Of a stretch of 64,000 nucleotides of DNA, positions 636 through 64,000 are shown one piece after another. Source of the stretch: Podarcis gaigeae (lineage: Eukaryota); the NCBI GenBank assembly GCA_964106915.2, contig OZ066931.1. One strand, 5' to 3'. Position numbers and translations under genes: made by a program. Each line of letters begins with the position of its first letter. The first letter of the stretch is position 1. The notes under the pieces were generated by a model that had not been told where the DNA came from, searched no databases, and was given only the letters and a program-made list of their open reading frames with translations.

Positions 636-26306
<25,671 letters not shown>

Positions 26307-30282: not shown

Positions 30283-31997
30283 GTGAGGGGTAAATTAAGG
30301 GGCAGGAGAGGGGCTTGGAAGCCAGATGAAGATACCAAGTGTTGACATGGGCCTGAGATGGAGAGAGAGAACCCACAGTCCCTTGGGTGAAGCCTTGGCC
30401 AAATCTGACTTCACAATGGGCTGCGGAATGTTTTGCTTCCCAGGAAAGCAGGTGAGCTGTTTGAAAGGATCCTGAGATCAGTTAAAAGCTCAGTCAACTC
30501 TCTCCTTCAGATCAGTGGACACCAGAGATGTCTTGCTGCTTTAGAGAACTGTCTTTTTTTTGGATCAGTTGACAGTGGAAACATCTGTCTCCTTCGGACG
30601 ACTATCTTTGGCTCAGTTGAAAGCCCAGAGAATGGTATTCTGCCTTCCTTGCTGCCACAGAAGGTAAGGTAAGCCAAAGTGAACTTCTGCAACCAAAGAG
30701 GAAAATAATATCGAAATTATACAGCTTGCTCCTTGAATGGGAACTGAAAGATGAGATAATAAAAGAACCAATGATAAAATGGACACAAGAGCTGGGCCAG
30801 ACAATTCATTTAGACAGATGGGAAAGATTATGGAAAACTGATATACATTTTACAAAAAAAATCCTTCCAGTAGCACCTTAAAGACCAACTAAGTTAGTTC
30901 TTGGTATGAGCTTTCGTGTGCATGCACACTTTTTACAGTGTGCTATTCGATTAAGGAAAATATAACGAAGATGTTTTACCGCTGGTACCTCACCCCAGTG
31001 AAACTATCAAATCTCTGTTGGTGGTCACGATGTATCATATGTGGTAGGGGTGCAAAGTGGTGAAACAATTCTAGATTAAGATACACGAAGAGCTTAAAAA
31101 TATATTTAGGAGTTCAATCTTTAAAAAACCAGAGGCATTTTTGCTGGTTTTAGTATTGAGTGACATTCCTAAGGATAAAAGGAATGTATTCCTTTATGCA
31201 ACCACGGCAGCCAGAATCGTAGTGGCAAAAAATTGGAAAACTGATAAAATACCAGAATTATTAGAATGGAGAATCAAACTTCTTGAATTCATGGAGATGG
31301 CAAAATTAACAGCATCAATTAGATGCTACTCTAATAAAAAAATTAATAAAGAGTGGGAATGCGTTAAGGGTTAGGGTTAGGGTCAGTGTAAATGAAAACA
31401 TGAGACATGGTTTTGTTACATATTTTATTTTGGAGTTGTCTGTTTATTTTGGAGTTGTATGTTGTAAAGAATGTATATTATGTGAATAAAATAATAAAGG
31501 AAGAAAATCTGGGATTTTAAAAAAAGAAGGTAAGGTAAGCAGGGAAGAGGGGAAACATGCTGCAGCCTTGGTCGTCCCCCCACCGCATGAGCAGTTTTAA
31601 AAGTTGCTCCTTGGTTATTTGACCTGCATAAATGCCATGCTTGCAGGGAGTGTTCTGGTTAATTTTCTGAGGGGTTTTTTTTTGGGGGGGAGGGTGGTTG
31701 TCTCCATCCAAATGACAGGAGAATTACCACCTCCCCCTCAAAAAAAAATCAGTAATATGCCCCCCCCCCGTCCCCAATTTCACCACCCACAAATAGGAAA
31801 TTCTAGGAGCTTGTTTTTCACTCAGCCCTAAAATACACACCCCACCTCTGCAGGGCTCACACCTGCACCCTTAAGTACTCCTTCCCTCGGGTGCATTGCC
31901 AGCACCATGAATTACCGGTAGTTTCTCAACTCCCAACTCCTACCAGCCCTAGACAGCAGATCCAGGATGTCAGATGTCATGGAGTAGGGGGACGAGG
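30283..31997 (+). repeat. copy A of a local tandem duplication (~0.8-kb unit, interrupted by L1)
   Basis: colinear similarity to 33391-34156. Confidence 0.9.
30675..31524 (+). mobile_element. degenerate 5'-truncated L1-clade LINE with a Penelope fragment (~30855-30930) inside
   Basis: KKPEAFLL/FLYATTAARIVVAKNWK; 16-bp TSD AGAAGGTAAGGTAAGC (30659-74, 31525-40); empty site in the duplicated copy at ~33745. Confidence 0.88.
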
Positions 31998-32288
31998 GGA
32001 GTCTCCTTCCTTCCCCTGCTAAAAACCTGAACCCCAAAATAGGCCCAAAATCAATTTAGGAGGCTGGATACATTTAGCACAGACTGTTTTATGACACCTC
32101 TGCTTGTCCCTGCCTCTGCACAAGAACCAAGTCCCTGGATCTGTGGTCCAGGACAGACCCCTCCTTGCTGCAGGACAACCTCTTCTATCTTGCAGACCTG
32201 AGCTTGCAGAAGTGGAAAGACACTGTTGGTTGTGATGACACTTCCTCTGTCTCCATGGGTGGTCCACCATCAGGAAGCCACCCACAGT

Positions 32289-33110
32289 TGTCAGGGGCTC
32301 AGGAGCAGAGGCACAGGGAAGAGAGGAAATGGAGAGCGAAGGGGAAGAATCTGAGGGCAGCGTAGGAGAAGATGACAGTAGCCCGAGAGATTCCATGAGC
32401 CTCTCCAGCGAATCAGAAGATTCACAGAAGGGGGCGCCGATGGCCAGGGCAAGGGGGGTCCCAAGGGGGACACTCCAGAAGCAAGGGGCCAGCGGTGACT
32501 CCCAGAGCAGTTGGAGATCAGGACCAGCTTCCCCACCAGAGCGTAGTGGGGGGGAAGAGTCCCAGGTATCGGGGCCAGCGTCTCCCCCAGCAGGGAGAGA
32601 AGATGAGTCAGGGCTGACCACGCCTCCATCCGAGAGTCAGGGAACGGAGGGGAAGTCAGGTCCAGCTAGCCTCCCGGAAGAGGGAAGCAGTGACAGAAGC
32701 AGTGTAACGGTCAGGAGGAAGGTCACTGGCTGGGCGCGAGCGCCAAGTTCAAATGTACAGGTGCGCGGGACAGCAGAGAACCCGGATTGGGAACCAGGTC
32801 CTAAAGCCCGCCGGAGGCAGGGGGAGGAGTCAGGGGACTCAGCGTCAGAAGAGTCCAGAAAGGGGAATGCCCCAGCGGACAGGAGGACCCAGAGGAGGAG
32901 AGAGCAGAGGAAGAGGTGGAGCAGGGCTAGAGTCTTAAACTGGTGTCAGAGGGGAGGAGATTCAGACGGAGCTTCGGCGGTCTAGGGTTTAAGACGTAGA
33001 GCTGCGCGCCACGGCTTTGAAATAGAGACTGAACTTCAATAAAGACTTTTGTATATAACAACGACCTGGCATTGGTCCTCTGTGAGCTGGGACCTTGGGC
33101 AGCTCTGACA
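32289..33110 (+). mobile_element. solo LTR of an LTR retrotransposon/ERV (superfamily uncertain, possibly Gypsy chromovirus/Sushi-like) with an internal ORF
   Basis: TGTCAG...CTGACA termini, 5-bp TSD ACAGT (32284-88, 33111-15), AATAAA 33038-43, homologous to 58120-58879. Confidence 0.85.
32329..32985 (+). CDS. LTR-encoded 218-aa Ser/Glu/Gly-rich protein with SGPASPP repeats and Arg-rich C-terminal motif; function unknown
   Basis: intact ATG-to-stop ORF; homologous ORF in the second copy shows synonymous-biased divergence and only in-frame indels. Confidence 0.7.
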   Translation: MESEGEESEGSVGEDDSSPRDSMSLSSESEDSQKGAPMARARGVPRGTLQKQGASGDSQSSWRSGPASPPERSGGEESQVSGPASPPAGREDESGLTTPPSESQGTEGKSGPASLPEEGSSDRSSVTVRRKVTGWARAPSSNVQVRGTAENPDWEPGPKARRRQGEESGDSASEESRKGNAPADRRTQRRREQRKRWSRARVLNWCQRGGDSDGASAV

Positions 33111-33390
33111 ACAGTGAATAGGGTATTTCTGTGGCTCACACCTTCAGAAGGATGGGGGAGTGCCTGGTGAGTTATTTGCCAGGAAGTGGGTCCTTTGCCC
33201 TTGTAAGTGTAGATTGCAACCTTTGAGTTCTCAAAAATGGCCATGAGTGAATTTCCCTCCAGCCAAGACCAAAATGGCTTAGTAAAGTTGGAGCACTCTA
33301 GCATTCTGATGCAGGGCCAGGGATGCGAGGCAGGGGGTGTTCAGGGGAAACTATCAGGGAAGCACAGATCCAGCTGCTCTAGCCCTCCTG

Positions 33391-34156
33391 GTGAGGGGTA
33401 TATTAAGGTGCTTGGAAGCTGGATGAAGATACCAAGTGGTGACATGGGACTGAGATGGAGACAGAGAGAGAGCCCACAGTTCATTGGGCGAAGTCTTGGC
33501 CAAGATCTGACTTCACAATGGGCTGCAGAATGTTTTGCTTCCCAGGAAACCAGGTAAGTTGTTTGAAAGGAACCTGAGATCAGCTAAAAGGTCAATCAGC
33601 TGTCTCCCTTCAGATCAGTTAACACTGCAGACATCCATTTCCTTCAGAGAATTGTCTTTTTTTGGATCAGTTGGAATCGGTAACATCTGTCTTTGGCTTG
33701 GTTGAAAGCCCAGAGAATGGTCTTCTGCCTCCCCTGGTACCACAGAAGGTAAGGGGGGAGGCATTCTGAAGCCTTGTTCGCCCCTTACCCCACCCCATGG
33801 GCAGTTTTTAAAGATGCTCCTTGGTTATTTGACCTTCATAAATGCCATGTGCCCAGGGAATGTTCTGGTTTATTTTCTGAGGTTTTTTTGTTTGTTTACC
33901 ACCCCCCCAATAAAATCAGTAATATGCCCCCCCCGTCCCCAATTTCACCACCCACAAATAGGAAATTCTAGGAGCTAGTTTTTCACTCAGCCCTAAAATA
34001 TACGCCCCACCTCTGCAGGGCTCACACCTGCACCCTTAAGTACTCCTTCCCTCGGGTGCATTGCCAGCATCTGGAATTAGTTTCTCAACTCCCAATTCCC
34101 ATCAGTCCTAGACAGCAGATCCAAGATGTCAGATGTCATGGAGTAGGGGGAGGAGG
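33391..34156 (+). repeat. copy B of the local tandem duplication
   Basis: colinear similarity to 30283-30674 plus 31541-31997. Confidence 0.9.
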
Positions 34157-49500: not shown

Positions 49501-52473
49501 GCAGAATCACTTCCCAATGGCTTTTCTCGTAATCTGCGCCCTTCTCTCCATGTCACTAAGTTTCTCTCCCTACTCTCTTACTTGGTTCCATGTCCATTGA
49601 TCCATTTTTCCTTTTTCAACTTTGACAAAAGGAAAAAACTATGACCGTTAACTATATAGTTTCTAAAGTCCATAGGCCCCCTTGAATTTAGACATAGTCT
49701 CTGAGGGGATGGGGTTTCTGTGCTACTCGACTTGCCTGAGTCTTTATCTGTTTTACTACAGGAGACGTAATTCATTACAGGTGGGTAACAAGATACTTGT
49801 TTCAAGTGGTGTTGATTATCATTAAGGATCGAGCAGGAGTATTCTGAAACAAATAATTTTCTTTTCTGCCAACTCTCTCTGACCCTCCTCTCTCTTTACC
49901 TTTTGTGCAGAATCACTCCCAGTAGCTGTTCCCTTAACTTGTATCTTCCCTCTATGTCACTTAAGTTTCTCTCTCCGAGTGCTGTCCTAACTCTCTTACT
50001 TTGTTCCCCATCCCTTGAAACAATAATCTCTACCAAGCAGTGGCATAGCATGGGGGGTGGCTGAGGGGGCCATCGCCCTAGGCCCAGTTTATTTTTGGGG
50101 GGGAGGGCACATCATGGCGCCTTGCCGTGTCTCGAGCTGTTGTGTCCTTGAAGCAGCAGGCGTGCAGCCTGGCCCCTGCGAGCCCAGCACTGCTTTTGCA
50201 AGCGGCCCTGCTTGCAGGGAGGGCACCGTGAGCTATTGTGTTCTTTTCGCGGCTCCCTCCAGCTGGGAAGGGGAGCTGAGAAGAATGCCCAGCATCATTT
50301 TGGTGACTCTTGCAAATCAACGCTGGACTCACGGGGCGCCGCCAGGGTGTCTGTTTTGCAGCATCGGGCAGGGTAGGGGTCGCTCTGGTGGCATGCCCTG
50401 CCCCCCTGGCCCTCCCCCCTGGCACATTTTTTTGAGGGGGCACAATGCCCCCACACCTTCCCCACGCCCCTGCCTGTCCCTGGGGGCAATCAGGGATGCA
50501 GTGCCCCTGCTACCAAGAAAACGCCCTAACCCTGAGCCTTGCTCGGAAGAAATGTTAAAAGGAAAAGACATATCCTTTGAAATGTAAGCTACCAAATAAT
50601 GCAGCACACAGACACCATCAGTCAAAAGATCTGAATTTGTATTGGCCATCATTATATACCTGGACTAAGTGTTCTGGAATCTTTCTTGCTTCTTCTAACC
50701 ACCATGGTGAACTGCTAGTCACAGGGATGCCCAAGTGAGGAAGATAAATTAAGTCAACAGCTGCTTTCGGTAAGTTACTGGCCAAAACCACAGTCAATCA
50801 AGTAAATGTTGGACTTGGAGGCTATTAGCTATTCTGCCTAATACTAAGGCTTCAGTATCTGAAGAAGTGGGCATACACACAAAAGCTCATACCAATAACA
50901 AACTTAGTTGGTCTCTAAGGTGCTACTGGAAGGAATTTTTTTATTTTGTTCTGAGAGAGTTCTGAGGGAGGGAAAAGTTACTTTGTCATACGTAAATTTT
51001 TCAGCTCAAGAAACTAAAGAAAAGTTCATTAAAAGAAATGAAATTATACAATTGAAATGCTGGGCTTTCCCCAGATTGACAGCCCCAGTATAGTACAACT
51101 TACTGCCTGACCAGAAGTTCTGTGTCTTGGATATGTTTTGAACCTTGGCCAAGAGAGAGGTTTAAGATTTGGCTGCCAGCGATGGTTAGCGTATGTGTGG
51201 GTTGGTGCCAAGACTCTCACCCTGCTGCAGCTTCCCTGGTGGGGTGTGTGTGTGTTTGTGTATATAGACTCCTAAGTGAGAGCTGTCAACCAGATTCCAG
51301 AATATTTGAAGGGCTTGCCATGCGATACCCTCAGAAGTGCTTGCTGGAGGCAGCAGATTATGGATGACCTATTGCCAGTGAGGTCACCAAAGGTTAATGA
51401 AATAAGATCTCCTCAGATCTTCCTTACTGAGGTGATACTTCACAGCAATGCTATACCGCACTTCCTTCATAATCTTCTTAAACCTCCTGAGGAATTGGGT
51501 GGCTATGCAGCGTGGCCCATTCTCTTCTTGGGAACGCTTGAAAAGCCTTCGCATGCCAATTTGTTTTATTTCATTGACATTTGTGTGTGTGTGTGTGTGT
51601 GTGCAGTGCTATTTCTCTAGAAAAAGAGGTGCCAGAACTTACCATGAACTCATTCTCTTAGAATATCAAGAGGTACTGGAACTGAGTTCTGACAAGTCCT
51701 GTCTGAAAAAATGCCCTGTGTATAAGTATAAATATGTATGTCTGCTTTTATACTGTTCATTGAAGGACAGAACAATCAGCATGTGAAAATTTTCTCCTTT
51801 TTATTTTTTAAATGGAAAAAGAAGTCGGGACAGGCACAAATCACCACGAAGTAAAGATGGAAGCCGATCAGAGAAATCTGTTACCATTCAAGCGCCAACA
51901 GCAGAGCCATTGCTGGGGAATGATTCTTCTCGGGCAGAAGAAGCTCAGGTAAGGAGTGAGGAAGGGGAGCAGCAGAATGTGGGCTGCAGGTGCAGGATTT
52001 TGTGGGCAGTGAATATCTTGGCACCTTGCTATTATTACTGTTGCTCTAAATGTGTTTTTCAGGCTAATGGCATTTCAGGTGTGGCAGCAATATGCTTAGA
52101 TTAACTCTTGATTTTGTTGCTGATATGCTCCTGATATGACATTTTTATGGCAAAGGCTGTCACAGAATTGCCTTGGGAGCTTTAGAAGCTATCAGCTGAC
52201 CATGCCTACCTTCAAAGGTTGCAGACTGGGAATATTTAAATGTGCCTAAATGCTTTTGACCAATGCTCCAGTGTCCGGTTGTAATCTGAGTTATTCGAGA
52301 CACAGGATGCTGCACTATAAATAGCATATATTTGAAAAATATCTTTCAACTGATATGTCTGGGTGGGCTGACTGCTAATGGCTTCCATAGGATCTGATGC
52401 TTTCTGACTGCAAACAAAAATAGCACAACTCATTTCTCCTGTACCGCTCACTAGAGACTTCAGAACTCATTCA

Positions 52474-52521
<48 letters not shown>

Positions 52522-55500
52522 CTCTCTTACACACACTCTTCTGCCTTGTTGCAGTAATCTCTGGTGAGGCCCACTGGGATGGGAATCTTGTTATTTGAAT
52601 CTAACAGATGTTCAGTTTCTTTGCCACTCCTGGTAAACCTGACTTTTAGACAAACAAGCCAACCAGGCCCTTAGGAGAATAGTCAAACAACCAAATGTGT
52701 CTTGGACCTGACAGCCAAGGTAATTCAGTTCAGAGTTGGACATGCATTTGAGAGATTGCCTCACCTCTGCCTCAGACTGCCTTGAACTTGCCTTGGGCGA
52801 GTCTTTTGCCATCTTTAAAAATACGACTTCCAATGGCTTGCCTTAAAGAAAATGTGTTTTTCAGTTTTGGAAGGGCTGTGGAAAAGTTTACCAGTATGCA
52901 AGATTCACCTTGCATTTGGTACCTTGCAAAAGTTCTCTAATCCAAAAATGTTTTGCAAATTGCTGAAGGGCAAAGGGGAAGCAGTGGCTGGCTTACTGAC
53001 ATCTTTCTGTGTGGTTTCATTGGCCTTTGGCTAAGATGACGTGGGGAGAAAGATCTACCAATTATATTTACCATTGGAAGTTTACTGCAATTTGCAGAGC
53101 ACGGGAGTAAGCGAAAGACCTTTGGCAATCTAATTTCCTAAATGGCAGCTCTCTTTCAGATCCGTACTTGGCAGACTAAATGTCTTGACACCTAGAACAG
53201 GAGTACATGGGCACAGCACAACATTGGTGATGATGCCTGACACTATATTTGGTAAACATTGCAAGATGAAAAGCTTCTGCCACTGGCTACTTGTTATGTC
53301 TACAGTGGCAAAGGAAACTTCCCAGGGAGTAGAGTGTTGGATGATCCAGGTTTAAATCCTCAGCCATGAAAATCCTTAGGGATGTTGATTAGCCCAAAAC
53401 TAATTATGCCCTATCTCAGAACTAGCTGATAGGATAAAATGGATGAGGGACCAAAACAATGGCAGCGTTTGCACATCCTAAAAAACTAGACTGTCTGTGA
53501 ATAAGTCTGATGACTCCTTCCCTGGAGAGAATGGAATAAACAAACAGAACTCTTGGATTCCCATTTTGTGGCTCCCTAAGCCACAAACTTGAGCCATAGT
53601 TTGGTGTTGACTTGTTGATCATGACTTGTTAGGGAGCAGCAAACCATGCTTCATGGTTCAGATGTAATGGGAGGCCAAGACTTCCTGGTTTGTGTATCCT
53701 GCTCACACCACAGGAGGAACAAAGTACTGTATGAGCTATCAGGCAATGTGTGCTCTGCTTGCTCTTAGTAAAAAGGTAAAGGGACCCCTGACCATTAGTC
53801 CAGTCGTGGCCAACTCTGGGGTTGCGACGCTCATCTCGTTTATTGGCCAAGGGAGTCAGTGTACAGCTTCTGGGTCATGTGGCTAGCATGACTAAGCCAC
53901 TTCTGGCGAACCAGAGCAGCGCATGGAAATGCCATTTACCTTCCTGCCAGAGCGGTACCTATTTATCTACTTGCACTTTGACGTGCTTTTGAACTGCTAG
54001 GTTGGCAGGAGCAGGGAGCGAGCAATGGGAGCTCACCCCGTCGCGGGGATTCGAACCACTGACCTTCTGATCGGCAAGTCCTAGGCTCTGTGGTTTAACC
54101 CACAGTGCCACCCGCGTCCCTTCTTAGTAAACCATGCTAAACCCAAAAGATTGGCTTTATTGTGATGTGCAAACATGTATGTTCTCCTAGGAGGAATGCA
54201 GGAATAATTATTTTTAACAATAGTGTATAATGATGACATCTCACAGTTTTTTTTGGATAATTAGTGTATTAGGCCTATTACAGTGGTACCTCGGGTTACA
54301 GATGCTTCAGGTTACTGACGCTTCAGGTTACAGACTCTGCTAACCCACAAATAGTACCTCGGGTTAAGAACTTTGCTTCAGGATGAGAACAGAAATGGTG
54401 CGACGGCAGCGGGAAGCCCCATTAGCTAAAGTGGTACCTCAGGTCAAGAACAGTTTCAGGTTAAGAACGGACCTCCGGAACGAATTAAGTTCTTAACCCG
54501 AGGTACTTCTGTAATTGTTCTTCCTCGTAACAATATCTGGTCAACTGACCAAATCTTTTTTGACCACTTAGATGTCAAGTATAACTACTGAAGGATGAGT
54601 AACTGGCTGAGATGTTTCCCCCCATTTTAAAGTGAAGTATGCTCTTCACAAAAGTAAAGCTAACAGTGAGAGTAAGGGAGGGAAGCTGTGTGGTTCACTC
54701 TTATCCCAGGTGGCTATGAGGACAGTCAACTGAGGAAATTGGGAAGCATCCTACGGAAAGGCTTCTGCCTATTTCTCCAGGGCCTCCTATTCAGTGTGGG
54801 GAAGCCATAAATGCAGAGGGCATAGCTTGCTCTGGTCTCTTGTCAGCTGTGTGGGTTCATAGGCCCAAGCATCTTGACCGGGGGATTGGAGGCCCTGAAC
54901 TAGGCCTCTTCGCCTGCAAAACGAGGGCCATCTGAAAGTGTCCTGACTATAGGAGTTGCTTATGAACGTGTTCTCTTCTTTTCTGCTTAGGATGACAACT
55001 GGGGTGAGACCACAACTGCCATCACAGGTACCTCTGAACATAGCATGTCCCAGGAGGACATTTCCAGGATCAGCAAGGACTTGGAGGACAGCGTTGGCGT
55101 AGAGTGCAAGCGCTATTTTCTCTTGACGTTGGCTGCTGTTCTGGGACTCCTCGTCTTCCTCACCCCTGTTGCCTTCATTCTGCTCCCACAGATCCTGCGG
55201 AGGACTGAGTTAGAGCCATGTGGCACTGCTTGTGAGGGACTCTTCATCTCTGTGGCTTTCAAACTCCTCATCCTCTTGATTGGCACCTGGGCTCTCTTCT
55301 TCCGCCAGCCCAAGGCTGACCTCCCCAGGGTGTTTGTCTTTCGCACCCTCATTTTGGTCCTCTTATTTCTGCTGGTGTTTTCTTACTGGCTCTTTTATGG
55401 CGTCCGCATTTTGGAATCCAAGGACATCAATTACCAGGGGATTGTACAGTTTGCTGTGTCGCTGGTGGACGCTCTTCTTTTTGTCCACTATCTCGCCATT

Positions 55501-55598
55501 GTGGTCCTGGAACTGAGGCAGCTGCAGCCAATGTTCACGGTCAAGGTGGTTCGATCGACAGACGGAGAATCACGCTATTATAGCCTGGGACACTTGAG
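46507..55598 (+). CDS. VANGL1: VANGL1 (Vang-like 1, planar cell polarity tetraspan protein), 5' partial spliced CDS; remaining exons lie beyond the window
   Basis: [11 protein letters not shown]...[10 protein letters not shown]...[18 protein letters not shown]...four TM segments...[15 protein letters not shown]; the [11 protein letters not shown] start fits VANGL1 better than VANGL2. Confidence 0.96.
47672..48546. mobile_element. hAT element with nested mariner-MITE fragment (48230-48432)
   Basis: termini CAGTAGTTCCCA / TGGGAACCACAG; degenerate 8-bp TSD AAGTAGCC / ACGTAGCA. Confidence 0.65.
50038..50509. mobile_element. hAT (Tip100-like) non-autonomous element, GC-rich
   Basis: perfect 8-bp TSD CTACCAAG; CAGTGGCA / TGCCCCTG termini. 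Confidence 0.78.
51822..51948 (+). CDS. VANGL1: VANGL1 exon 3 ([42 protein letters not shown]); acceptor position uncertain (51822 or 51825)
   Basis: clear homology; donor CAG|GTAAGG; the nearby in-frame AG acceptors are the tandem AAG/AAG. Confidence 0.88.
52477..52526 (+). repeat. (CT)n microsatellite; other simple repeats are (TG)n 51582-51603, (TTA)n 19603-19634 and (TA)n 18479-18497
   Basis: seen directly. Confidence 0.95.
53773..54121 (-). mobile_element. Sauria SINE
   Basis: full length; TSD TCTTAGTAAA. Confidence 0.9.
54281..54511. mobile_element. Tc1/mariner-pogo MITE
   Basis: CAGTGGTACCTCGGGTTA...TAACCCGAGGTACTTCTG, TA TSD. Confidence 0.82.
54991..55598 (+). CDS. VANGL1: VANGL1 exon 4 (608 bp, four transmembrane helices)
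   Basis: cttag|GATGACAACTGG; ORF 55045-55602; |gtaggt. Confidence 0.97.
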
Positions 55599-55724
55599 GT
55601 AGGTCAAAGCAGATTTGGGAAGCCAGAGCAGCAATTTGCATTTAATCTCTACTTCCTGCTTTATTTACTTCTCCCCTTTTTAATTTTGGTCTTTAGCTCA
55701 ATTTCTGCAGCCCATTTACATGTA

Positions 55725-55974: not shown

Positions 55975-58119
55975 TAGTTCCTTCACAAGTTTTGCTGGTG
56001 TTTGTTGAAAACAGCTTCCGCCTTAGCTTGTTTTAAGTTGTGTAAGAACCCCATTTTTAGGCTCTCCACCTTGCCTCTGTGTGGGATCTGGCCCTGGTCA
56101 CAGATTTGCGTCCGTGTGTGGGATTAAATGCATGTAACAGGAGTAGGACTGGCCCTCCTGGCCCTGCCCCCCACGTCATGAACCCCCCAGCTGCATAGTG
56201 ACCCATGCATATAGCACCAATGTCCGAAAGAAGACGAGCCCTTCCCTCATTGGTTTCCACGCAGTTTGGGACAAGCTCTTTCTCCCTTCTCTGGGGGGGG
56301 GCAGGATACCCTTGAAAGCACTTACCTGAGGAGAACTTTGAAAGTGTGGTTGTCGGCTCTCTCCCTCACTCTCAGCCAGCACTGCAAACAAGGTGGCATT
56401 AGGTGGTGAAGTTCTCTGTCCTTTACAGTTTTGCAGCTGTACAATCTAAAGGTCGTAAAGGAGGTGTGGCAGCAACATGGAGCCGCAACCCGATGGTGCT
56501 GCTTAGTAAGCATGCAGGGTTAAAAACTTCATATGTCTTCTGAATGGAAGGCGCACCAGTTGGTGAGGAACAAAAATGCCATGTTCTGTCAGTTTGGTTA
56601 GATCGGGAAGGGAACAGTTGGCTTTCTAGATGTTGGATTCCATCTCCCTTCAGCCCAGCTTGCAAGGCCAATTGTCAGAGATAGTGGTGCTTAGAGTCCA
56701 AAAACATCTGGAGGAAGAGCCCCATGTCACTGGACAGCAGGTGTGGTGTTGAATGTTTGAATACTCACCTGGATAAAATGCTATCTCCACAGCCTGGCAT
56801 GTTGAGGAAAAGGTTAACCTAGAACCTTCTCTGTGATTTTGTGTGTGTTATATTTTAGCACTATTTTATTGCATTTTGTTCCTATGTTTTACACACACAC
56901 ATACACGGTTTGCATATAACAGTTCTTAACAGCTTTGGACTTCTGGGCTCCCCCCCCCCCCATTTTAGGACATGATCTGCAGATTATGCAAATTACATAC
57001 CTGGACTGTACCATTTCAGATTGTAGGATGTATGGAGTTAAGCATCCCATGTAAAATATTTTATTTATGTAGTAAACTAGCACATTAGAACGAGTGCTAT
57101 TATAGTTGTAGCCCTTGCTGTGATGTGTTCAGTTTATTACATTTGGGAAGTCTATACATGAGGAAACACTCAGAAAGTTGTCTTCCCCATAGCTCGCACA
57201 CATGCCGTCTGAAATGGAATTGCCCAAATTCTGCCGCCATACTTCGTGCAGTATCATAGAATCATAGAGTTGGAAGAGACCACAAGGGCCACCGAGTCCA
57301 ACCCCCTGCCAAGCAGGAAACACCATCAGAGCACTCCTGACATATGGTTGTCAAGCCTCTGCTTAAAGACCTCCAAAGAAGGAGACTCCACCACACTCCT
57401 TGGCAGCAAATTCCACTGTCAAACAGCTCTTACTGTCAGGAAGTTCTTCCTAATGTTTAGGTGGAATCTTCTTTCTTGTAGTTTGGATCCATTGCTCCGT
57501 GTCCACTTCTCTGGAGCGGCAGAAAACAACCTTTCTCCCTCCTCTATGTGACATCCTTTTATATATTTGAACATGGCTATCATATCACCCCTTAACCTCC
57601 TCTTCTCCAGGCTAAACATGCCCAGCTCCCTTAGCCGTTCCTCATAAGGCATCGTTTCCAGGCCTTTGACCATTTTGGTTGCCCTCCTCTGGACACGTTC
57701 CAGTTTGTCAGTGTCCTTCTTGAACTGTGGTGCCCAGAACTGGACACGGTACTCCAGGTGAGGTCTGACCAGAGCAGAGTACAGTGGCACGATTACTTCC
57801 CTTGATCTAGATGCTATACTCCTATTGATGCAGCCCAGAATTGCATTGGCTTTTTTAGCTGCCGCATCACACTGTTGGCTCATGTCAAGTTTGTGGTCAA
57901 CCAATACTCCTAGATCCTTTTCACATGTACTGCTCTCAAGCCAGGTGTCACCCATCTTGTATTTGTGCCTCTCATTTTTTTTGCCCAAGTGCAATACTTT
58001 ACATTTCTCCCTGTTAAAATTCATCTTGTTTGTGTTGGCCCAGTTCTCTAATCTGTCAAGGTCGTTTTGAAGTGTGATCCTGTCCTCTGGGGTGTTAGCC
58101 ACCCCTCCCAGTTTGGTGT

Positions 58120-58879
58120 TGTCAGGACTGCTGCTAGGTCCCAGCTCACAGAGGACCAACGCCCAGTGGATGTTATATACAAAAGTCTTTATTAAAGTTT
58201 AGTTTCCATTTCCAAGCTCTGGGCGCGCAGACCCACGTCTTGGCGCTAGACCGGCTAAGTCCCCTCTGACTCACTGCTCCACCCACACCAGTTTAAGATT
58301 CTAGCCCGGCTCCACCTCTTGCGCTGCTCTTTCCTGCGTTGGGTCCTTCTGCCCTCTGGGGTTCCCTCCTTCCTGGACTCCTCTGACGCGGAGCCTCCTG
58401 AGTCTTGCCCCTCCCTCCGGCGGGCTTTAGGACCTGGCTCCCTTCCCGGGCTCCCCGCTGTGCCGCGCTCCTGTACATTTGAACTTGGCGCGCGCGCCCA
58501 GCCGGTGACTTTCCTTCTGACCGTTTCCCCGCTTCCTGATGTGGGTGTTGCCAAACCTGACTCCTCTCCTCCCTCTGGTGGTGAGGACACTGGTCCCGAC
58601 TCCTGGGACTCCCCCTCCCCACTGCGCTCTGGTGGAGACGCTGGTCCTGATCTCCAGCTGCTGCTCAGGGACTCCCCGCTGGGCCCTTCCTCCTGGGGCT
58701 TCCCCCCTGGACCCCCCTTCGCTCTGGCCACCAGCGCTCCCTTCTGTGAGTCCTCCGATTCGCTAGAGAGGCTTGTGGAATAACTCTGGCCACTGTCACT
58801 GCCTGCGCCCCCCTCGTACTCCTCCTCCTCACTCTCCATTTGCTCCCCCTCCTGTGTCTCTCCTTCTGAACCCCTGACA
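58120..58879 (-). mobile_element. second, diverged solo LTR of the same family, inserted in CR1 ORF2
   Basis: TGTCAGG termini, 5-bp TSD GGTGT (58115-19, 58880-84), AATAAA on minus strand at 58188-93. Confidence 0.87.
58255..58839 (-). CDS. LTR-encoded 194-aa protein (homologue of 32329-32985)
   Basis: ATG at the same offset (40 nt) from the LTR start as in copy 1; MESEEEE...[22 protein letters not shown]. Confidence 0.7.
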
Positions 58880-60616
58880 GGTGTCATCTGCAAATTTGAT
58901 CAGGATGCCCTTGAGTCCATCATCCAAGTCGTTGATAAAGATGTTGAATAAGACTGGGCCCAAGACAGAACCCTGTAGCACCCCACTAGTCACTCTTCTC
59001 CAGGATGAAGAGGAACCATTGATGAGCACCCTTTGGGTTCGGTCAGTCAGCCAGTTACAAATCCACTGAGTGGTAGCATAGTCAAGACCACATTTTACCA
59101 GCTTCTTTACAAGAATATCATGGGGCACCTTGTCAAATGCCTTGCTGAAATCAAGGTAGGCTACACCCACTGCGTTCCCTTCTTCTACCAGGGTTGTAAT
59201 TCTGTCAAAAAACAAGATCAGGTTCGTCTGACATGACTTATTTTTCAGAAATCCATGCTGACTATTGGTGATCACAGCATTCCTTTCTAGGTGCTCACAG
59301 ACTGTTTGCTTAATGATCTGCTCCAGAATCTTCCCTGGTATTGATGTCAGACTGACTGGGCGGTAATTATTTGGGTCCTCTCTTTTCCCCTTTTTGAAAA
59401 TAGGGACAAACATTTGCTCTCCTCCAGTCTGCCGGGACTTCGCCTGTTCTCCAGGAATTCTCAAAGGTGACTGCCAGTGGTTCTGAGATCACATCTGCCA
59501 GTTCTTTTAATACTCTTGGATGCAGTTCATCTGGCCCTGGAGACTTGAATACATCTAGACTAGCCAAGTATTCTTGTACTATCTCCTTAGTTATTCTGGG
59601 CTGTGTTTCCTCTGCTGAATCATTTGCTCCAAATTCTTCAGGTCGGGCATTGTTTTCTTTATCGAAGAAGACTGAGGCAAAGAAGGCATTGAGGAGTTCA
59701 GCCCTTTCTGTGTCCCCTGTTTGCATTTCACCATCTTCTCTGAGTGACCCCACTGTTTCTTTGTTCTTCCTTTTGCTACGAACATACCCATAATAGCCTT
59801 TTTTGTTGCTTTTAACCTCTCTAGCAAGCCTGAGTTCATTCTGTCCTTTAGCTTTCCTGACTTTGTGTCTACACGCACTGGCTATTTGTTTGAATTCCTC
59901 TTTGGTGGGTTTCCCTCTTTTCCATTTTTTGTACACATCCTTTTTTAATCTTAACTCAGTTAAAAGTTCTTTAAATAGCCACCCTGGCTTCTTTAGGCAC
60001 CTTCCGTGTTTCCGTCTCATTGGTATTGCCTGAAGTTGTGCTTTTACTATCTCCCTCTTAACAAACTCCCAGCCATCATGAACTCCCTTTCCTTTGAGTA
60101 TTACTGTCCATGGGATCTCACCCAGCACTTCCCTAAGTTTTATGAAGTTGGCTTTCTTAAAGTCAAGAAATTGAGTCCTAGTATGCTTGGCTGCTCCTTT
60201 CCGCTGTATAGTAAACTTCAGAAGAGCATGATCACTCGCGCCTAATGATCCTTCCACTTCTACCCCACTAACCAGGTCATCAACATTGGTTAGGACCAGA
60301 TCTAAAATGGCTGTTCCTCTTGTTGCTTCTCCCACTTTCTGGACAATGAAGTTGTCTGCAAGGCCAGTGAGGAATCTGTTTGACCTTATGCTCTTGGCTG
60401 AGTTTGACATCCAACAAATATCCGGGTAATTGAAGTCCCCCATTACTACTATCTCCCTTCCTTTTGCATGCTTGGCCATCTGTTCCAGGAAGGCATCATC
60501 TATGTCCTCCGTTTGGCTTGGGGATCTATAGTAAACTCCCACAATGAGGTCACTGTTATTATTCTCTCCCTTAATTTTGACCTAAATGCTCTCACTTTGG
60601 CTTTCAGGTTCTAAAT

Positions 60617-61805: not shown

Positions 61806-64000
61806 TTCAGGTTCTAAATCTTGGATCTCTTCACAGGTATACACATCCCTGACATATAATGCCACTCCTCCTCCTTTCTTGTCTGGTCTGTTTCTCTGAA
61901 ATAGATTGAATCCCTCTATTATTACATTCCAATCGTGGTACTTATCCCACCAGGTTTCAGTGATGCCTATTGTGTCCTATTTAGTTTGCTGTACCAAGAG
62001 CTCAAGTTCATCTTGTTTATTTCCCATGCTTTGCGCATTAGTGTACAGACATTGAAATCCATTAATCATTCCCCCGTGTCTCTTATTTAAGGATTTTTTC
62101 CTCCCACCACTAGGTCTGCATGCTGTTTGCTCCATTTGGTCTATGACATTTGGATGATCATCTTCATCAATTGATAGACTCCTACCTTCAGGAGCACTGT
62201 CTCCCTCCCCCACATTAGTCAGTTTAAAGCCCTCCTGATGAGGTTTCTGAGATTTTTGGCAAAAACATTCCTCCCAACCGTTGTGAAGTGCAGCCATCGC
62301 TTGCCAGAAGTCCATCTTCAAGAAACTGATCTAAGAATCCAAACCGTTCCAGTTTACACCATTTGTGAAGCCAGCTGTTCACTTCCACTATTTTTCCCTC
62401 TCTCCCTAGGCCACATCGTTCAACTGGGAGGACAGATGAGATGACAATTTGTGCATTTAATTGCTTCAATTTCCTGCCCAGAGCCTCGTAGTCTCTTTTG
62501 ATCTTCTGGAGGCTATTGCTTGCAGTGTCATTGGTTCCCACATGAACCAAGAGGAAGGGGTATTTGTCAGTGGGTTTTATGATTCCTTGCAGTCGTTCAG
62601 TTACATCTTGGATCTTAGCCCCGGGGAGACAGCACACTTCCCGAGACATCTTGTCAGGCCCACAGATCACTGCTTCTGTTCCCCTCAGTAGGGAATCCCC
62701 TATCACCACTACACGCCTCCTCTTAGGTCTGGTCAGGGTTCTTCCGTGAGCTGTCCGTTCCAACGTCGCCTGCACATTCCCTGAGGACTGACTTGCTGCT
62801 CGTCTTCATATACCTGATCGACTGTAATGAGGGAGACATCCTCAAATGGAGTCTGCTCTTCGTCTTCCATGCTAGGGGAGAGGACCTCAAAGCGATTGTG
62901 TATTTCTAAACAATCAGAGCGAACCCTGGGCCTCCTACTTCTTTGAGTCATGTTTCTCCATATATCTGGCTCCTGTGTTGGTGAACTAGCCTCCTTCTCA
63001 GGAGAGTCCCCTGTCTCCTCCTTGGTGGAGACGGTGTGCTCTGTTGCTTCCAAGAAGAGCTCCAGCTCTCTAATTCTTTGGAGCGTAGCTACACGTTCCT
63101 CCAGTTGCTGGACTTTATCTTCTAAGAGGGCAATCAACATGCAATTGCTGCAGGTAAAGCTGCCTGCAACCTTTGGCAAGATGGCAAACATTGCGCAGGA
63201 ACCGCAGGCGACTGCAGCTGTTCCCTCACCCTCCATCTTGAGAACGTGTCGTTGGGGGTGACTACAGCGGTTCTCCATCATAAAAAGCGTGAAGACAGGA
63301 CAAATAACTCCCCTCCAAGAAACCCTAGGTCTCCCCCAACAAACGTTTGAGACTAGCTCCCCTAAATCTAAAAGATGGATCAAACTGCCCTGCAAGCTCT
63401 GATAAGCTCCTCCCACAGCTAATCACCTGACTCAACAGAAGCCCTGCCCCCTCTGACCTTTGCACAGGGAGAGCAGCTAATCAGCCACAAGAAACACACA
63501 CACAAGAAAACCCTTTGTGCTCCTTTTTCAGCTGCTGCCCTGCAAGCTCTGCCCTGCAAGTAATATGTAGCATCAGCATTTAGATGAACCTGTTTAAACG
63601 AAAAGCAAAACACTGGCAAAGGATGAATCAGGCTAAACTCTGGGTGGCTACCATACCAGCTGGGGTGAAATTGAGCTGAAGCTGTGCTCTTTTTTGTGTG
63701 TGTCCTCATTTTCTTCACTCTCTCCCCCCCCCCCCCCCGGTGGGTTGCTCCAGAGAAGCACATCAGGTCTCGAGAGGCATAGTAAGGCTTGAATCAGATT
63801 TGCTGTAGCTCAGGAGTTTGAAATCATAAGCTGCAGTTGGCAATGGGGAACAAAAGGGACAGAGGGAAAATCTCATTCTTTGAATGAGCAATGGAGGGTG
63901 TTGTAATAACAGGTTGCATGAACCGTAAAATTGCATTTGGCTTCAGAACATTTTCACACAAGGTTTCTCAGGTATACACCTAAAACCACGTAACAGGCAC

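Follow-up and report, generated by a model that had tools for sequence, protein, structure and literature searches.

Two solitary long terminal repeats (LTRs) in a 64,000-nt stretch of Podarcis gaigeae DNA (hereafter the window; contig OZ066931.1 of assembly GCA_964106915.2) each contain a long intact open reading frame (ORF), which raises the question of what a frame inside an LTR encodes and whether solo copies disperse it as a gene. The first-pass annotation had answered that the LTR carries an accessory gene under purifying selection and that every solo LTR spreads a complete gene cassette. The anatomy that it described is sound: both elements have TG...CA termini with TGTCAG ends, perfect 5-bp target site duplications (TSDs) and an AATAAA signal 73-74 nt before the end, and both hold an intact ORF (218 and 194 aa) with an ATG after 40 nt (Table 1). 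In both LTRs the frame is also open 5' of this ATG at +41, back to the first LTR bases.

Table 1. Features of the two solo LTRs in the window; promoter and RNA start positions are predictions.
Feature	Position	Strand	Remarks
Solo LTR, family 1	32289..33110	+	822 nt; ends TGTCAG...CTGACA
TSD ACAGT (5 bp) of family-1 LTR	left 32284..32288, right 33111-33115	+	perfect
Predicted LTR-encoded part of Pol C-terminal tail, family 1	32290..32985	+	231 codons plus stop
ATG, family-1 LTR	32329	+	predicted internal codon of Pol tail; first ATG, after 40 nt
Predicted U3, family 1	32289..32963	+	675 nt, a multiple of three; fully overlaid by frame; boundary predicted from self-primer
TATA-like CTTAAA, family 1	32934..32939	+	30 nt upstream of predicted start, within L-N-W-C codons; putative function
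Self-primer, 11 nt, family 1	32964..32974	+	complement of the primer-binding site in full-length copies; R and RNA predicted to begin here
AATAAA polyadenylation signal, family 1	33038..33043	+	
Solo LTR, family 2	58120..58879	-	760 nt; ends TGTCAG...CTGACA; interrupts LINE reverse-transcriptase frame
TSD GGTGT (5 bp) of family-2 LTR	58880..58884, other copy 58115-58119	-	perfect
Predicted LTR-encoded part of Pol C-terminal tail, family 2	58255..58878	-	207 codons plus stop
ATG, family-2 LTR	58839	-	predicted internal codon of Pol tail; first ATG, after 40 nt
TATA-like CTTAAA, family 2	58292..58297	-	at -30 of predicted start
Self-primer, 11 nt, family 2	58257..58267	-	stop codon directly after
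AATAAA polyadenylation signal, family 2	58188..58193	-	

Around the first LTR lies an old local duplication (~81% identical; 30309-30669 / 33406-33754 and 31538-31997 / 33744-34156), the first copy of which is split by ~870 nt. Elsewhere the window holds exons of an SNF2 helicase gene (4928-13156, +) and of a Strabismus gene (51787-55602, +), which we take to be CHD1L and VANGL1, respectively, and a GDSL/SGNH-like frame (62224-62649, -) that is probably ORF1 of the LINE hosting the second LTR.

Searches of the genome with both window LTRs returned 2680 candidates for family 1 and 1477 for family 2, of which 40 each were scored. The best matches that we fetched were mostly solo LTRs with their own target duplication, and the solo copies among the 40 scored matches per LTR are spread over many contigs. 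Many copies in the genome are 97-98% identical to the family-1 window LTR, as are both LTRs in full-length elements. Such two-LTR elements are 6.5-6.7 kb long with LTR pairs that are 97.1-99.9% identical, and Pfam analysis of their internal regions reveals Gag with a zinc knuckle, protease, reverse transcriptase (RT), RNase H, integrase, a Tf2-type SH3 module and a weak chromodomain; no env was found in the full-length copies. The pol frame overlaps gag in the -1 frame in 5/5 copies. The gag-pol overlap of one copy (L142) contains a GGGAAAC heptamer, which in our estimation resembles the frameshift site of PEG10.

Several features of copy distribution were also observed. Ten loci (L036-L038, L041, L042, L046-L048, L056 and L058) carry a family-2 solo LTR between common flanking sequences and represent an amplified segment or array on contigs C32, C65, C106 and C113. 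Contig C32 (29.5 Mb, ~2% of the assembly) accounts for 25 of the best 40 family-1 internal-end matches, as counted by eye, and for many matches of the distant family described below, a pattern expected of a W chromosome. Full-length copies are frequent near chromosome ends, with matches within ~50 kb of contig ends, and two LTRs (L050 and L159) adjoin or are cut by telomeric TTAGGG arrays.

The full-length copies connect the LTR frame to pol. A single unbroken frame of 1525-1526 codons runs from the protease to LTR nt 625 in four of eight full-length family-2 copies, one family-1-like copy has a 1591-codon frame ending at LTR nt 700, and frames of at least 1500 codons occur in 57 of 101 matches to a third family, retrieved with a query that favours intact copies. 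At the 3' junctions of 30 loci per family, spacing to a pol anchor was in frame for 14 family-2 and 19 family-1-like junctions and shorter by 1-2 nt for 15 and 10, respectively, with one unscored in each set; the frame is open from an anchor after the chromodomain to the LTR stop at 10/30 family-2 and 5/30 family-1-like junction loci. The shortened junctions vary in G-runs ahead of the polypurine tract, and those out of frame (about half in family 2 and a third in the family-1-like set) may reflect decay or assembly errors in these runs. The first two copies hinted at a programmed -1 shift on passing from pol to the LTR frame, an idea that was rejected because in-frame spacing is the commonest. 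In Logan contigs assembled from DNA runs, the G-runs ahead of the LTR contained no indel reaching 10%, a result of little weight since contigs drop rare variants.

Protein databases contain the same arrangement. UniRef Pol entries from Podarcis muralis, for example A0A670KNJ5 ('Gypsy retrotransposon integrase-like protein 1'), share the tail and are 66-69% identical to the family-2 window ORF (68% over 93% of it). The ORF therefore already stands annotated within a known element protein, a circumstance that the earlier reading had itself named as counting against it. Judged by its continuity with pol, the LTR ORF is the predicted in-frame C-terminal end of the Pol integrase, which follows the chromodomain and an acidic linker, crosses the polypurine tract and enters the 3' LTR.

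Where transcription would begin is suggested by the priming signals. Of 17 full-length copies in which both parts were called, 14 have a primer-binding site behind the 5' LTR that matches the complement of an LTR segment over 11-12 nt; in the other three the match covers only 7 nt. The complementary segment sits 146-149 nt before the LTR end, and the complement exists in three versions that co-vary on both sides. Folding gave primer pairing probabilities of 0.96-0.99 in 5/5 copies tried, all picked from complete matches. According to the available parts of bioRxiv 10.1101/2022.12.06.519325 and PMC4600332, the self-primer of Tf1/sushi elements is the 5' end of the RNA. On this basis the RNA is predicted to start at the self-primer, at window positions 32964 (family 1) and 58267 (family 2); each LTR has a TATA-like hexamer at -30. 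The frame would thus lie in U3, upstream of the predicted start, so that transcription from the promoter of a solo LTR would miss it.

The overlap of Pol with U3 extends across families, with the frame matching U3 exactly. U3 length is divisible by three in 82 of 96 3' LTRs, over U3 sizes of 279-682 nt (a few copies may be double-counted from overlapping loci), and wherever the frame is open across U3 (77 copies, those of a distant family among them) the stop lies 13-25 nt after the start of the self-primer. This distant family of the same genome (RT 72-74% identical) has LTRs of 411-435 nt containing 102-109 codons in the same layout, an LTR pair having been found in five of ten fetched loci, and it also has the complement between primer site and LTR. 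The end of its tail, with a basic stretch and an L-L-C-W motif, bears a weak similarity to that of the window tail (shuffle p 0.003-0.05 for six pairs and 0.02-0.29 for three pairs with P0017). A Pol that appears to cover the whole predicted U3 including the promoter, in families with LTRs of 411-826 nt, is unusual.

We next consider selection on the frame. Over 193 aligned codons the two window ORFs differ at 31, 31 and 63 sites in codon positions 1, 2 and 3, and the three indels within the frame (3, 3 and 63 nt) are multiples of three, bearing out the earlier observation of frame-preserving indels and mainly silent divergence. The Nei-Gojobori method gives a dS of 0.56 and a dN of 0.18 for this pair, a ratio of 0.32. 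In comparisons of natural copies drawn from different subfamilies, the LTR part has a dN/dS of 0.13-0.47 with an upper bootstrap bound below 1 in 15/15 pairs, values similar to those of the linker (0.20-0.41) and above those of the integrase core (0.08-0.25); these pairs are not independent, no transition correction was applied, and deep pairs are near saturation. The claim that the LTR encodes a protein under purifying selection is thereby upheld.

Solo copies were compared within each family. For family 1, the 30 loci gave 21 distinct solo copies, 16 of them intact; set against the nearest neighbour of each, they show 60 replacement changes, including three stops, and 25 silent ones, with pN/pS of 0.84-1.03, and thus drift neutrally after insertion. 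Family-2 solo copies (16 of 30 loci, chosen by likeness to the window copy, 16/16 intact) have eight silent and eight replacement changes and pN/pS of 0.35-0.43 (p 0.04-0.10), small numbers that do not show neutrality. These patterns suggest that selection acts mainly on the replicating lineage. They also bear on the proposal of an independent accessory gene, translated from the ATG at +41 and expressed by every solo LTR. The ATG does stand at an equal offset in both window copies, one of them with a good start context, and host read-through could in principle translate the frame. However, codon +41 is ACA in 12 and deleted in 17 of the 29 family-3 loci printed, the ATG is also absent from the Podarcis entries, and two subfamilies have no Met at all in the LTR part; in addition, the frame is continuous with pol, the predicted promoter lies at its 3' end, and the family-1 solo copies gain replacements and stops neutrally. 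We consider an independent gene very improbable, and the idea of a dispersed gene cassette falls with it.

Not all of the conservation need be of protein. Codon identity reaches 0.75-0.98 at the polypurine tract, the LTR end and one internal block. Part of the conservation is at the DNA level, in the polypurine tract, LTR end and promoter, and L-N-W-C and the final S-D-G may serve promoter and self-primer rather than protein. Taken to its limit, this would mean that the tail is nearly functionless: the frame would be open since its stop lies shortly after the start of transcription, and what looks like selection would reflect promoter and priming signals plus a tolerated disordered extension. 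The coincidence of conserved end motifs with the TATA-like site and self-primer fits such an account, as does a tail that matches no domain or structure (Pfam, PDB, AlphaFold2). Yet blocks such as S-S-E-S-E-D-S-Q-K and P-G-P-K-A-R-R are conserved as residues although codon identity in them is only 41-45%, and the frame-keeping length changes across U3s of 279-681 nt are difficult to account for unless selection favours reaching the C-terminal end. We therefore regard a nearly functionless tail as quite unlikely.

Some 350-390 residues follow the chromodomain. They comprise an acidic linker and a part rich in Ser, Gly and Pro, and the last 60 of them are basic. AlphaFold2 predicts no fold for the tail, which is modelled as disordered with one low-confidence helix over the basic end (mean pLDDT 38.6), a model too poor to permit a fold search. 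Neither window ORF has a Pfam or PDB sequence match, and an ESM Atlas search of the tail returned nothing usable (best score 0.75). In a profile search of 1.84 billion representatives the LTR part occurred only in lacertid-named entries or close relatives, a range that does not bound the hosts because repeats are poorly represented among predicted proteins. The chromodomain of the window families is weak (Pfam E 0.024; best HP1 match E 0.28) and lacks the W and Y of the HP1 aromatic cage (as defined in the available part of PMC3605345), whereas the distant family keeps the W and has a much better chromodomain (E 3e-8 to HP1). Since the distant family combines a tail with a good chromodomain, the tail did not arise simply as a replacement for a dead one.

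The length of this region, long for a mere tether, could instead point to a free protein, with the Pol tail cut off by the element protease or made alone from a spliced RNA and acting, for example, against host silencing. In families 1-3 the primer-binding site starts with GTAAG(T/C), a splice-donor look-alike directly after the 5' LTR, and an in-frame Met lies within the polypurine tract. Against this, both the GT motif and the polypurine-tract Met are missing from the distant family, the AAG bases are accounted for by self-primer pairing, and the stretch before the LTR is purine-rich, with no acceptor-like pyrimidine tract. A free accessory protein is accordingly unlikely. As to what an attached tail would do, we lean, by analogy, towards nuclear import or chromatin tethering of the integrase, though with modest confidence.

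Taken as a whole, it is highly probable that the solo LTRs of the window derive from a Gypsy chromovirus in which the pol frame spans the polypurine tract and the entire predicted U3, and that the tail constitutes the last 207-232 residues of Pol, likely a tether. A possible course of events is that RNA starts at the self-primer, and that the tail would be translated only from the 3' LTR of full-length RNA, within Gag-Pol. Reverse transcription would then copy the tail-coding U3 into both LTRs. In the solo copies left by LTR-LTR recombination, the frame would be a passive passenger, and the promoter would sit at the far end of the frame. The tail itself might act as a flexible tether whose basic end helix brings integrase into the nucleus or onto chromatin; most speculatively, it may compensate for a chromodomain without an aromatic cage.

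Insertion sites show a preference of their own. At 39 solo-LTR insertion sites in the fetched loci the preference is symmetric: the third base outside the duplication is A/T in 38/39 cases to the left and 39/39 to the right. The duplication itself tends towards R-Y-W-R-Y. The family-2 window LTR (58115-58884 with its duplications) and a family-1 LTR elsewhere (L029:1500) are independent insertions in opposite orientation at the identical position in two copies of the same LINE, which may be due to target preference.

These results correct a tempting misreading, namely that the coding solo LTRs of this lizard family are gene cassettes, and they serve as an annotation warning, as such solo LTRs will be called small genes. 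They also point to a vertebrate LTR promoter region that is protein-coding end to end, and with a promoter region that is also coding, promoter and integrase tail must evolve together. The element offers a system to study, through an isolated protein fragment, how retrotransposons choose chromatin once the chromodomain degenerates.

Coding sequence that overlaps the 3' U3 and is copied into both LTRs is familiar from MMTV sag and lentiviral nef. Both sag and nef are distinct genes, each having a start codon and mRNA of its own, whereas the lizard frame is fused to pol, has no conserved start codon of its own, and belongs to an element without env.

By domain order, priming and gag-pol frame, the element is assigned to the self-priming Gypsy chromoviruses of the Tf1/sushi type. 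This group of Ty3/Gypsy chromoviruses (the V-clade of GyDB, with sushi-ichi and Amn-san) is covered by the available parts of bioRxiv 10.1101/2022.12.06.519325, PMC6317226, PMC4600332 and PMC4131045. The likeness to these descriptions includes domain order with the GPY/F-SH3 module, the position of the weak putative chromodomain, self-priming without a tRNA primer and a pol frame at -1 of gag, the overlap given there for members of the group outside fission yeast; 5-bp TSDs and TGTYANR-type ends likewise agree with the available text of PMC3601003. The lizard element departs from the Tf1/sushi descriptions, as far as these extend, in the course of Pol over U3, in its 207-232 LTR codons (102-109 in the distant family) and in its degenerate chromodomain.

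A closer parallel for the tail comes from plants. In centromeric chromoviruses of CRM group A (Beetle, Cereba), the polyprotein extends into the 3' LTR, where it encodes the CR domain, an integrase C-terminal extension described in the accessible portions of PMC3059260, PMC3605345 and PMC11302176 as a poorly conserved tether and a basic-motif helix, proposed to bind centromeric chromatin; the same sources cite a C-terminal nuclear localisation signal in Ty1 integrase. The lizard polyprotein frame also enters the 3' LTR. In those accounts the plant elements use a tRNA-Met primer and have no classical chromodomain, whereas the lizard element self-primes, still has the remnant of a chromodomain ahead of the polypurine tract, and carries its frame over the whole predicted U3. 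We treat the lizard tail and the CR domain as a parallel of arrangement. We found no vertebrate element with Pol across U3 in the full-text literature, although some older papers and Repbase, Dfam and GyDB lay outside our reach and may describe such elements. The UniRef entries from Podarcis muralis carry the same Pol and tail, under automatic names that ignore the LTR-encoded last part.

A bolder proposal, which we put forward tentatively and as somewhat doubtful, is that a vertebrate chromovirus clade independently evolved a CR-domain equivalent, a tether and basic targeting helix overprinted on the whole U3 promoter and ending exactly at the transcription start, which doubled in length in young lizard families as the chromodomain decayed and now steers integration. 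Within a family that is both young and abundant, the lizard element offers an animal parallel to the CR domain of plants: it is a Tf1/sushi-type chromovirus in which a CRM-like read-through extends over the whole U3, its proteins already present in UniRef under automatic names.
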